Below, one piece after another: positions 2,256-5,691 of a DNA stretch of 5,691 bases. The DNA comes from a virus (lineage: Duplodnaviria; Heunggongvirae; Uroviricota; Caudoviricetes): IMG/VR virus record IMGVR_UViG_2703718869_000017. One strand, 5' to 3'. Under the pieces are notes generated by a model, which saw only the letters and a program-made list of their open reading frames with translations, made no database searches and was not told where the DNA came from. How positions within the stretch are numbered: position 1 is the stretch's first letter; each line of letters opens with the position of its first letter. A program made the translations under genes and the position numbers.

Positions 2256-2833
2256 ACACGGCAGCGGAAGCCATCCGGGCGCTGTCGTTACAGGTGCCGG
2301 GATTCCGCCGTCAGATGAACGAAGGCTGGTACCAGATACGTATTCGCGGTGAGGACACGGCACCGGAGGCGGTGTACGCCCGTCTTCACGAACCTCTGGG
2401 TGAGGGGGCGGTCATCCATATTGTGCCGCGACTGGCCGGAGCCGGAAAGGGCGGACTGCAGATTGTGCTGGGGGCGGCAGCCATCGTGGGGTCGTTCTTC
2501 ACGGCCGGGGCATCAATGGCGTTATGGGGTTCAGCCCTGGCAGCCGGTGGTTTTTCTGCCACCACGATGCTGTTTTCACTGGGGGCCAGCATGATACTGG
2601 GTGGTGTGGCTCAGATGCTTGCCCCGAAGGCAAAAACACCGGATTACCGCGCAACGGATAACGGCAGACAGAACACGTACTTTTCCTCGCTGGATAACAT
2701 GATTGCCCAGGGGAACCCGATGCCGGTGCCTTACGGGGAAATGCTGGTTGGCTCCCGCCGTATATCCCAGGACATCAGTACCCGTGATGAAGGCGGTGAC
2801 GGGAAGGTGGTGGTTATCGGGCGGCAGGCATAA
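2153..2833 (+). CDS. I: Tail tip assembly protein I, 226 aa
   Basis: MATTNAF.LASP..ARICL.GDLQRFGRR......AAEAIRAL..Q.P.FR......GWYQ.RI.G.D...........HE.L..GAVIHIVPR.AGA..GG.QIVLGAAAI.GSFFTAGA ... GASM.LGGVAQMLAPKA.TP...TDNG.QNTYFSSLDNM.AQGN..PV.YGEM.VGSR..SQ.IST.DEG..G.VVVIGR matches lambda gpI by recollection. Starts inside the 3' end of K in a different frame (103-nt overlap, as in lambda). GGGAGAGG lies at 2134-2141. Stop TAA 2831-2833. Confidence 0.9.
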   Translation: MATTNAFCLASPPLARICLHGDLQRFGRRLSLYVNTAAEAIRALSLQVPGFRRQMNEGWYQIRIRGEDTAPEAVYARLHEPLGEGAVIHIVPRLAGAGKGGLQIVLGAAAIVGSFFTAGASMALWGSALAAGGFSATTMLFSLGASMILGGVAQMLAPKAKTPDYRATDNGRQNTYFSSLDNMIAQGNPMPVPYGEMLVGSRRISQDISTRDEGGDGKVVVIGRQA

Positions 2834-2870
2834 AAGCGAAAAAATCCCGCAGTGACCGAAGGCTGCGGGA
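2831..2870 (-). terminator. Candidate rho-independent terminator oriented for the minus strand, directly after the I stop codon
   Basis: Inverted repeat CCCGCAG (2846-2852) / CTGCGGG (2863-2869) with a 10-nt loop. Read on the minus strand the hairpin is followed by AUUUUUUCGCUUUUA (complement of 2831-2845) and its loop contains C-UUCG-G. On the + strand the hairpin is followed by AACAGAAAAUG, with no U-tract. Confidence 0.5.
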
Positions 2871-2886
2871 ACAGAAAATGAAGATT
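2871..2886. repeat. Left copy of a direct repeat (ACAGAAAATG + AAGAT)
   Basis: The 10-mer ACAGAAAATG at 2871-2880 is identical to 2961-2970; the following AAGAT also recurs after a 2-nt TG insertion in the right copy. Confidence 0.55.
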
Positions 2887-2960
2887 AACCACAGGGAGTT
2901 TTGTTTTTATTGGCCCGAAAAAACTGTAACGCCCGGGAATGATATCTGCCACGGGGGCGT

Positions 2961-2978
2961 ACAGAAAATGTGAAGATA
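2961..2978. repeat. Right copy of the direct repeat (ACAGAAAATG + TG + AAGAT)
   Basis: Identical 10-mer 90 bp downstream of the left copy. In this copy the ATG is immediately followed by TGA. Confidence 0.55.
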
Positions 2979-3003
2979 TTCAGAATTTTTATTCAGTCAT
3001 GAT

Positions 3004-3039
3004 ACAGGCATCCTCCGGGATGCCTGTTGTTTTTGTGCG
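3004..3039 (+). terminator. Candidate rho-independent terminator or attenuator hairpin on the + strand, ~30 nt upstream of the J start codon
   Basis: Perfect 10-bp inverted repeat ACAGGCATCC (3004-3013) / GGATGCCTGT (3018-3027) with 4-nt loop TCCG, followed by TGTTTTTGTG (3028-3037). On the minus strand the same hairpin is followed by AUCAUGACUG, with no U-tract. Confidence 0.5.
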
Positions 3040-3068
3040 TAACAGTTATCACAGTAAAGGGTGAGACA

Positions 3069-5691
3069 ATGGGCAAAGGTGGCGGCAGGGCGCACACGCC
3101 GGTTGAGGCAAAGGACAATCTTAAGTCCACGCAGATGATGAGCGTGATTGACGCCATCGGTGAGGGACCGGTGGAAGGTCCGGTGAAGGGGCTGCAGAGT
3201 ATCCTGGTGAACAAAACCCCGCTGACGGACACGGACGGTAATCCTGTGATAAACGGTGTGACTGCGGTCTGGCGTGCCGGGGAGCAGGAGCAGACACCAC
3301 CGGAAGGTTTTGAGTCCTCCGGAGCTGAAACCGCACTGGGCGTGGAAGTGACGAAGGCAAAGCCGGTGACGCGCACCATTACGTCCGCGAACATTGACCG
3401 CCTGCGGGTCACCTTCGGGGTGCAGTCACTGGTGGAGACCACCTCAAAGGGCGACCGTAATCCCTCTTCTGTCCGACTGCTGATTCAGTTGCAGCGTAAC
3501 GGTAACTGGGTGACGGAAAAGGATGTCACCATTAACGGCAAGACCACCTCACAGTACCTGGCGTCGGTGATTCTGGAGAATCTGCCTGAGCGGCCCTTTA
3601 ACATCCGGATGGTCCGGGAGACAGCGGACAGCACCACGGACCAGCTGCAGAATAAGACGCTCTGGTCGTCATACACCGAAATCATCGATGTGAAACAGTG
3701 CTACCCGAACACGGCCATTGTGGGGCTGCAGGTGGATGCGGAGCAGTTTGGCGGTCAGCAGATGACGGTGAACTACCATATCCGCGGTCGCATCATCCAG
3801 GTACCGTCAAACTATGACCCGGAAAAACGCACGTACAGCGGCATCTGGGACGGCAGCCTGAAACCGGCATACAGCAACAACCCTGCCTGGTGCCTGTGGG
3901 ACATGCTGACTCACCCGCGCTACGGCATGGGAAAACGTCTGGGGGCGGCAGACGTGGACAAATGGGCGCTGTATGCCATTGCGCAGTACTGCGACCAGAC
4001 GGTCCCGGATGGTTTCGGGGGCACAGAGCCGCGGATGACCTTTAATGCGTACCTGTCACAACAGCGTAAGGCGTGGGACGTTCTCAGTGATTTCTGCTCG
4101 GCGATGCGCTGTATGCCGGTATGGAACGGCCAGACGCTGACGTTCGTTCAGGACCGTCCGTCGGATGTGGTGTGGCCGTACACCAACAGCGATGTGGTGG
4201 TGGATGATAACGGCGTGGGGTTCCGCTACAGCTTCAGCGCCCTGAAGGACCGCCACACGGCGGTGGAGGTGAATTACACCGACCCGCAGAACGGCTGGCA
4301 GACCTCCACGGAACTGGTGGAAGACCCGGAAGCCATACTGCGCTACGGGCGCAACCTGCTGAAGATGGATGCGTTCGGTTGCACCAGTCGCGGTCAGGCC
4401 CACCGTGCCGGGCTGTGGGTGATAAAGACCGGACTGCTGAAGCAGACGGTGGATTTCACGCTCGGGTCACAGGGGCTGCGTCACACACCCGGTGACATTA
4501 TTGAAATCTGTGATAACGACTATGCCGGGACCATGACCGGCGGACGTATCCTGTCCATCGATGCCGCCAGCCGCACCCTGACACTGGACCGTGAGGTGAC
4601 CCTGCCGGAGACAGGTGCCGCCACGGTGAACCTGATTAACGGCAGCGGTAAGCCGGTGAGTGTGGACATCACCGCACACCCCGCGCCGGACCGGATACAG
4701 GTCAGTACCCTGCCGGATGGCGTGGAGACATACGGTGTGTGGGGACTCTCCCTGCCGTCACTGCGTCGTCGCCTGTTCCGCTGTGTCTCCATCCGGGAAA
4801 ACACGGACGGCACCTTTGCCATCACGGCAGTGCAGCACGTACCGGAAAAAGAAGCCATCGTGGATAACGGGGCGCACTTTGACGGCGACCAGAGCGGCAC
4901 CCTGAACAGCGTCATCCCGCCGGCAGTGCAGCACCTGACGGTGGAGGTGAGCGCGGCTGACGGCCAGTATCTGGCACAGGCGAAATGGGACACGCCGCGG
5001 GTGGTGAAGGGTGTGCGCTTCAGTCTGCGCCTGACCAGCGGAAGCGGAGAAGACAGACGTCTGGTGACCACCGCCATCACTGCGGATACAGAGCACCGTT
5101 TCAGTGGTCTGCCGCCCGGGGAATACACCCTGACAGTCAGGGCAATTAACAGTTATGGCCAGCAGGGCGAACCGGCCACCACCACGTTCAGGATTAATGC
5201 ACCTGCGGTACCCGCCACGATTGAGCTGACACCGGGCTATTTTCAGATAACAGCGGTCCCGCGTCTTGCGGTGTATGACCCGACGGTACAGTTTGAGTTC
5301 TGGTTTTCGGAGACAAAAATCGCAGACACATCTCAGGTGGAAACCTCTGCCCGTTATCTGGGGACCGGCAGTCAGTGGAGTGTATCCGGCCCGCACATTA
5401 AGCCCGGGAAGGATTTCTGGTTTTATGTGCGCAGCGTCAACCTGGTGGGGAAATCTGCTTTTGTGGAAGCCAGTGGCCGGGCCAGCAATGATGCAGAAGG
5501 GTATCTGGGGCTGTTTCGGGAAAAAATAGGAAAACTGCATCTGGCTCAGGGGCTGTGGGAGCTGATAGACAACAGCCAGCTTGCGGATGAGATGGCGGAG
5601 ATGAAGACCAGCATCACCGAAACCCGCAATGAAATCACACAGACGGTCAGTAAAACACTGGAGAACCAGAGCGCCACCATACAGCAGATAC
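3069..5691 (+). CDS. J: Host specificity protein J (central tail fibre / tip attachment protein), N-terminal ~874 codons; 3' end lies outside the window
   Basis: ATG at 3069 is the first ATG after an in-frame TGA at 3000-3002; AAGGGTGAG lies upstream. The frame stays open to the window end. Translation [39 protein letters not shown]...[15 protein letters not shown]...[33 protein letters not shown]...[24 protein letters not shown]...[16 protein letters not shown]...[38 protein letters not shown]... is colinear with lambda gpJ as recalled, including FN3-like repeats. Confidence 0.94.

Follow-up and report, generated by a model that had tools for sequence, protein, structure and literature searches.

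The hairpin at positions 2845-2870 of the tailed-phage sequence analysed here (IMG/VR record IMGVR_UViG_2703718869_000017; the whole stretch of 5,691 nt is referred to as the window) is probably the Rho-independent terminator of a small RNA (sRNA) gene of the PasB family, whose RNA would depend on Hfq and be produced in lysogens from a promoter of its own. The window element is a new, diverged sequence class of this already described sRNA family; its structure, conservation and homology, and the conservation of its -10 hexamer, are shown here. The family appears to be broader than published: PasB of EPEC and EcOnc22-24 of EHEC are apparently the same kind of gene, and a third, multi-copy class occurs in about 9% of complete E. 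coli genomes.

The window comprises the end of the tape-measure gene, followed by the tail genes M (462-803, Pfam Phage_min_tail), L (803-1501, Phage_tail_L), K (about 1512-2255, JAB plus NlpC/P60), the tail assembly gene I (2153-2833, stop codon TAA at 2831-2833; Lambda_tail_I, E = 3.3e-15) and the start of the tail tip and host-specificity gene J (3069-5691, GpJ domains), which continues past the window end. Open reading frames and Pfam matches place all of these late genes on the plus strand, in agreement with the preliminary description of this DNA. Genes I and J form the left and right boundaries of a non-coding spacer of 235 nt (2834-3068), and the hairpin is located at its left end. The I-J spacer has matches in 706 out of 5426 complete E. 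coli genomes, at a median of 3 sites in each, and in 147 phage records, mostly of Stx-converting phages, and almost none of the matches listed had an annotated feature beneath it. This unannotated gap in the tail operon of a very common STEC prophage most likely contains a gene of a known sRNA family.

The hairpin consists of an inverted repeat, TCCCGCAG/CTGCGGGA (2845-2852 and 2863-2870), with a GC-rich, fully complementary stem of 8 bp and a loop of 10 nt; read on the minus strand, the stem is UCCCGCAG/CUGCGGGA and the loop CCUUCGGUCA. Directly 3' of it, the minus strand continues with TTTTTT (2844-2839) and then CGCTTTT, while the plus strand reads AACAGAAAATG on its 3' side, so the T-tract is confined to the minus strand. 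This combination of a GC-rich stem-loop (predicted energy -14.0 kcal/mol) and an immediate U-tract is that of an intrinsic terminator, and termination of leftward transcription is predicted from it. The UUUUUU tract (2839-2844, minus strand) is at the same time the presumed site for the proximal face of Hfq. A custom scan (perfectly paired stem of 7 bp or more including 5 or more G/C, loop of 3-10 nt, 6 or more T among the 7 bases that follow) singled out this hairpin alone in the window, whereas 300 dinucleotide shuffles gave on average 0.007 sites per window; a built-in terminator scan missed the hairpin because its loops were limited to 3-8 nt. The earlier claims of a hairpin with a U-tract on the minus strand only, and of a terminator that abuts the stop codon of I, were thus borne out, with 5 nt separating the terminator end from that codon.

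For comparison, protein I was used as bait and retrieved 80 viral contigs in addition to the loci of EHEC Sakai and EPEC E2348/69, which together gave 66 I-J spacers, 35 of them distinct; a protein I scan of species-representative genomes yielded 12 loci, few of them useful. The hairpin and U-tract, whose conservation in related prophages had been suggested as a check, are present in 35 of 35 distinct spacers, the only deviations being one spacer with a single stem mismatch and one with a shorter stem and an interrupted U-tract. Among 23 distinct RNA variants, 22-23 have the same seven pairs in the centre of the stem, the U-tract counts 6-7 U in 22 (6, not 7, in the window copy), and the loop varies between 4 and 16 nt; the 5' half of the RNA diverges as well. 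In the folding and covariation analysis, also suggested earlier, the terminator fold is predicted and conserved, and its stem displays no covariation because it never varies. The spacers themselves are mosaics with at least four classes of RNA body, namely W (the window), E (E2348/69), S (Sakai) and F (with a longer terminator loop).

The closest characterised relative is PasB of EPEC O127:H6 E2348/69, a northern-verified RNA of 83 nt (NC_011601.1, 1466343 to 1466261, minus strand; Pearl Mizrahi et al. 2021, PMC8550237, table S6). In the E2348/69 record, PasB is situated antisense between I (ending at 1466255) and gpJ (starting at 1466496), with its 3' end 6 nt from I. The window spacer is 87% identical over its whole length to that of the E2348/69 prophage PP6, and PasB maps to 2917 to 2838 of the window (alignment A1); the first 13 bases (AATCCCGCAGTGA...) of the published northern probe, AATCCCGCAGTGATCGCGGAGCT (PMC8550237), are identical to window positions 2843-2855. 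Both elements share the position in the I-J spacer, the antisense orientation, a distance of 5-6 nt between the 3' end and the I stop codon, the terminator stem, the U-tail, the seed position, the ARN run and the position of the -10 hexamer. They differ in the RNA body, which is 67% identical, in the terminator loop and in the promoter (-35 TTTTCT, 18-nt spacer and -10 TATCAT in the window versus TTCACA, 16 nt and TATAAT for PasB). PasB had 37 RIL-seq partners, a log2 change of -6.8 without hfq and a 7-U tail, and was commoner under non-activating conditions (PMC8550237).

A second group of presumed homologues was found in EHEC O157:H7 Sakai, where Hfq-CRAC had detected EcOnc22 (prophage Sp15) and its repeats EcOnc23 (Sp14) and EcOnc24 (Sp11) on the plus strand (Tree et al. 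2014, PMC4104026, table S2), and where EcOnc22 gave a northern band of ~85 nt that was destabilised without hfq (PMC4104026). The tail operons of Sp15, Sp14 and Sp11 are on the minus strand, and the nominal EcOnc22-24 coordinates fall inside 240-nt I-J spacers. Taken at face value, these coordinates would place the RNAs at the J end of the spacer (about 2985-3046 of the window, minus strand), a placement that was rejected since the 2014 coordinates refer to an older Sakai record. The offset between the genome versions, +128 to +146, was inferred from three anchors and not from the old record: AgvB1 lies +137 to +146 in the current record relative to the 2014 table, the STnc100-type EcOnc06 (Sp17) needs a shift of +99 to +227, and EcOnc42 is consistent with the same shift, while PasA/EcOnc51 is ambiguous as an anchor. 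The lengths of the old and current records presumably differ by 128 nt. With the offset applied, the EcOnc22-24 peaks occupy spacer positions 11-89, inside the predicted RNA (positions 5-94), and we therefore regard EcOnc22-24 as PasB homologues, an assignment that depends on the inferred genome-version offset. Like the window element they are antisense to the tail operon and inside the I-J spacer, and they share its terminator stem and seed core; they form a third sequence class with 62% identity to the window RNA. A link between EcOnc22-24 and PasB is absent from the PasB papers (PMC8550237; doi 10.64898/2026.05.13.724894) and from a review (PMC7873438), which lists the target of EcOnc22 as 'unknown'.

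A covariance model built from 18 variants, with the window's own class excluded, had a single match in the window, full length on the minus strand from 2931 to 2838 (64.3 bits, E = 1.9e-12). The PasB-family gene of class W is accordingly placed at 2838-2931 (minus strand), with a predicted RNA extending from ~2932/2931 to ~2839/2838 and a 5' end that is uncertain within 2932-2917. Just 5' of the terminator, the putative seed GUUAAUCUUCAU (2878-2889, minus strand) is single-stranded in the predicted fold; its core AAUCUU (2886-2881) is invariant or nearly so in the 23 variants, with A47, U48, C49, U50 and U51 invariant in alignment A2. This position agrees with the PasB seed proposed by Zhu et al. 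(doi 10.64898/2026.05.13.724894), a single-stranded stretch just upstream of the terminator. Further conserved columns of alignment A2 form the CU-rich motif AACUCCC (2894-2900, minus strand; AACUCCU in other classes), which is complementary to the Shine-Dalgarno-like AGGAGUU and may be functional. It is preceded by an (ARN)4 run, AAU-AAA-AAC-AAA (2901-2912, minus strand), a candidate motif for the distal face of Hfq; three to five ARN triplets occur at the same place in 23 of 23 distinct variants, and a run of at least four arises in 0.2% of shuffles of the window RNA.

Apart from the terminator, little structure is predicted in the window RNA, which is what one would expect of an sRNA that acts by base pairing. 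The fold of the whole RNA was no better than that of shuffles (z = -0.3), and a 5' hairpin between the U-run and the A-run, considered as an additional element, was dropped for want of RNAalifold support, the terminator alone being predicted. A search of the whole window against Rfam 15 returned no family at E up to 1; PasB is absent from Rfam 15, and the present results argue for including a PasB model in RNA family libraries.

Class W differs from class E in its distribution. Of the 5426 E. coli genomes, 464 were matched by a window-class query (2871-2960, at least 95% identity), at 1548 places in all; the carriers, with a median copy number of 3 and at most 8 copies, are mostly strains of the STEC serotypes O157, O26, O103, O111 and O121. 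They include O157:H7 PV15-279 and O26:H11 11368, the latter with a spacer 100% identical to that of the window. The equivalent E2348/69 segment occurs 907 times in 887 genomes (median 1). A single-copy pattern was also reported for PasB in the preprint of Zhu, Shabalina and Storz 2026 (doi 10.64898/2026.05.13.724894), and since this pattern matches class E, the published survey was probably restricted to that class. Working through Hfq, sRNAs that prophages produce in the lysogenic state can reprogramme the expression of host and virulence genes; differences in copy number and class could therefore matter for STEC biology.

The I-J site has received other cargo as well. In Sakai Sp10, a minus-strand sodC gene in the I-J gap replaces the sRNA promoter while RNA body and terminator are retained; the site is therefore a hot spot for antisense-oriented inserts. 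The sodC 'moron' shares insertion site and orientation with the window element and is likewise self-contained with its own terminator facing I; its payload is a protein gene, whereas that of the window is a non-coding RNA of ~90 nt. It is conceivable, if unlikely, that the I-J spacer acts as a modular sRNA cassette: terminator, seed core and Hfq motifs would stay fixed, while recombination joins them to interchangeable 5' regions, terminator loops and promoters. With at least four PasB classes and up to 8 window-class copies per STEC genome, and given that the published survey apparently counted the single-copy E2348/69 class only, the PasB-type network of EHEC would in that case be larger than described and in part unrecognised, maybe with class-specific targets or a cis effect on the J mRNA.

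How the sRNA would work can be outlined from its parts and from its relatives. Transcription of the minus strand would start at a sigma-70-type promoter with the -10 hexamer TATCAT (2944-2939), run leftwards for ~80-95 nt and be halted by the hairpin with its U-tract (2870-2839), 5 nt short of the I stop codon. The gene would represent an antisense-oriented insert ('moron') in the I-J spacer of a lambdoid prophage. A promoter and a terminator of its own would uncouple it from late transcription, so that the RNA could be produced in the lysogen. On the model of PasB and EcOnc22, Hfq would bind and stabilise the RNA, with the 3' U-tail on the proximal face and the conserved ARN run probably on the distal face, and the conserved single-stranded segment UUAAUCUUCAU, possibly also AACUCCC, would pair in trans with host and prophage mRNAs. 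The terminator would also prevent the antisense transcript from entering I. Expression, size, Hfq dependence and a large number of RNA partners were established by others on homologues; for the copy in the window, we infer its expression, exact start site, seed and targets. The preliminary description had proposed an independent small transcript of the minus strand, originating in the I-J spacer, ending at this terminator and possibly made in the lysogen, and this proposal gains support by analogy from the published experiments on PasB and EcOnc22-24.

Quite unlikely, though compatible with a role in trans, is that the RNA acts mainly in cis by pairing with the perfectly complementary I-J part of the late mRNA, where cleavage or a change in stability would tune or silence J. 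Position and orientation between I and J are indeed constant in 66 loci and at least four classes, and the hairpins at 2845-2870 and 3004-3027 would become fragment ends after such cleavage. However, a constant position may simply mean a permissive insertion site, and conservation is concentrated in short motifs (seed, ARN run, terminator) and not in the whole complementary stretch. In addition, PasB with its 37 trans partners in RIL-seq behaves as a typical Hfq-dependent sRNA, and the replacement of the promoter by sodC in Sakai Sp10 left the tail operon without apparent loss. A trans-acting PasB-family sRNA is the better-supported reading.

The probable -10 hexamer TATCAT (2939-2944, minus strand) belongs to a site that matches the consensus at 5-6 of 6 positions across variants, being TATAAT in class E and AATAAT in classes S and F. 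Each of the 31 distinct upstream regions keeps A2 and T6 of this hexamer, which always lies 7 nt upstream of a conserved 5' C(G/A)UUA. Upstream of it, a weak -35-like hexamer TTTTCT (2963-2968, minus strand) has 3/6 matches and an 18-nt spacer; classes E and F have a good -35, TTCACA with a 16-nt spacer, and in the experimentally detected Sakai class it likewise matches at 3/6. None of the promoter strings occurs in the supplements of the EDL933 start-site paper, and a generic promoter scan of both strands of 2500-3400 returned no promoter-like site. Because the spacing between the conserved -10 and the CGUUA of the conserved 5' end does not vary, an RNA of ~80-95 nt is expected. Relative to the start that this -10 predicts, the mapped 5' end of PasB (2917) is displaced ~14 nt downstream, a difference that may reflect the start site or a processing step; we conclude that the class W RNA starts between 2932 and 2917.

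The weak -35 and the empty generic scan would also fit a terminator that, in this copy, is an insulator or a relic, stopping leftward transcription from the J side, such as that of antisense inserts like sodC, before it reaches I, with the class promoter decayed and the sRNA no longer functional. Such an arrangement has a parallel in Sakai Sp10, where terminator and RNA body lie downstream of the minus-strand sodC without a -10 of their own, and no Hfq-CRAC peak is listed at the I-J spacers of Sp12 or Sp10, the two other Sakai spacers examined. Against this, the window copy retains an intact -10 (TATCAT), seed and ARN run, the -35 of the Sakai class is equally weak, yet the class is expressed, and the maintenance of class W at at least 95% identity in 1548 places of 464 genomes argues against decay. 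We consider loss of function in this copy very unlikely, and the intact gene of the PasB family remains the preferred reading.

A different promoter had been proposed in the preliminary description, with ATGACT (3000-2995) as -35 and TATCTT (2978-2973) as -10, which would produce an RNA of 120-130 nt. The hexamers are present with a 16-nt spacer and 4/6 matches each, but they fall below the threshold of the promoter scan and are not conserved: 10 of the 31 distinct variants, the Sakai class among them, have TTTCTT or ACTCTT at the -10 and so lack its essential A2, and the -35 lies within a sequence that is replaced altogether in the class of 342-nt spacers. A start near 2966, as these hexamers imply, would yield ~128 nt, compared with 83-85 nt measured in homologues, which makes this longer RNA highly improbable. 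The hexamers are part of an AT-rich block (2969-3003) that is kept across all spacer classes (alignments A1 and A3) upstream of the sRNA promoter and may have a UP-element-like role.

Least credible of all is a type I toxin-antitoxin-like pair, in which a small protein encoded on the plus strand (ATG at 2878, 31 codons) would be the functional product and the minus-strand RNA its antisense partner: three variant groups, including the Sakai class, do carry an ORF of 39-41 codons with the C-terminal sequence ...NFIPS and a stop codon immediately ahead of the plus-strand hairpin, but the ATG is changed to ACG in 9 of 35 distinct spacers and deleted in 2, frameshifts and stops leave ORFs of 10-54 codons, the window frame diverges after about codon 8, the peptide is not hydrophobic and has no Pfam match, and a ribosome-profiling study, in which repeats map poorly, lists no novel small gene at Sakai 29025xx-29028xx (Sp15) or 26765xx-26766xx (Sp14).

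A correspondence of the RNA to the anti-sRNAs AgvB or AsxR was ruled out, as those genes are located downstream of PR' and have no match here: searches for RF02702 and RF02703 at E up to 1 returned nothing in the window, although AgvB of Sakai Sp10 and Sp17 was detected in the same way. The likeness is one of kind, since AgvB and AsxR of EHEC prophages, as predicted by analogy for the window sRNA, are short, Hfq-binding and prophage-encoded, carry an ARN motif in their 5' portion, end in an intrinsic terminator and are made in lysogens. They differ in size (51-60 nt), in their location near the lysis and stx genes, and in a sequence that is unrelated to the window RNA.

At the other end of the spacer, a second terminator-like hairpin, absent from the preliminary description, is present on the plus strand just upstream of the ribosome-binding site of J. 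A terminator scan identified it at 3004-3037 as a 10-bp stem-loop (3004-3027), ACAGGCATCC-TCCG-GGATGCCTGT, followed by TGTTTTTGTG. Its predicted energy is -19.3 kcal/mol, and across 14 variants 97.9% of cells are paired, with one covarying pair (C-G to U-A) and with G-U pairs that are workable on the plus strand only. In the 342-nt spacers, a different terminator of the plus strand takes its place.

The junction between tail genes I and J can also hold a larger insertion. In prophage Sp10 of E. coli Sakai, the I-J gap extends over 851 nt and carries a minus-strand sodC gene (Cu/Zn superoxide dismutase) with its own terminator (L103:13485-14335, equal to NC_002695.2 1963484-1964334). This insert has replaced the sRNA promoter, while the PasB-type body and terminator are still present downstream. 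This marks the I-J junction as a hot spot for inserts in antisense orientation.

Within the window, further elements share the I-J spacer with the predicted sRNA gene. A small plus-strand ORF (2878-2973, MKINHREFCFYWPEKTVTPGNDICHGGVQKM) starts opposite the putative seed of the sRNA. It reaches 39-41 codons and ends in NFIPS in three variant groups, the Sakai class among them, where its stop codon lies directly at a plus-strand hairpin; in the remaining spacer variants the ORF is shortened or frameshifted, or its ATG is missing. The hairpin itself (3004-3037, plus strand; 10 bp, -19.3 kcal/mol) is strong and terminator-like, is followed by a T-run, and sits within the late operon, 30 nt 5' of the J ribosome-binding site. 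Across spacer variants this hairpin is conserved, showing one compensatory pair as well as G-U pairs that are valid on the plus strand only, and in the variants with a 342-nt spacer another plus-strand terminator takes its place at the same position. Conservation of the spacer across all classes is highest in an AT-rich block (2969-3003, AAATGTGAAGATATTCAGAATTTTTATTCAGTCATGA). This block precedes the sRNA promoter, does not belong to the RNA, and could serve as an UP element or as the binding site of a regulator. Directly 5' of the J ribosome-binding site, the 7-nt unit ACATCAG occurs three times in two IMG/VR contigs (L100 and L026) and once in most spacers of their type; the repeat is absent from the J-proximal segment of the window itself.

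The PasB-type copy in Sakai prophage Sp12 (L104:13393-13733) differs at one position from the E2348/69 PasB sequence and has a strong promoter (TTCACA-16-TATAAT). However, no EcOnc peak is listed at this copy in table S2 of Tree et al. 2014 (PMC4104026), in contrast to the weaker-promoter class in Sp11/14/15, for which such peaks are given. The EcOnc coordinates of that table appear to be shifted relative to the current RefSeq record (NC_002695.2) by approximately +128 to +146 nt, a shift that holds at least from 1.94 Mb onward, and the sRNAs would be misplaced if the published coordinates were put onto this record unshifted.

Three short contigs with protein I (L011, L013 and L019) are filed under Streptomyces flavalbus, Parendozoicomonas haliclonae and a Clostridiales MAG. 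Their protein I is 92-100% identical to that of the present E. coli prophage, and L011 also possesses a PasB-type spacer. Most likely, these contigs represent E. coli contamination of the respective assemblies.
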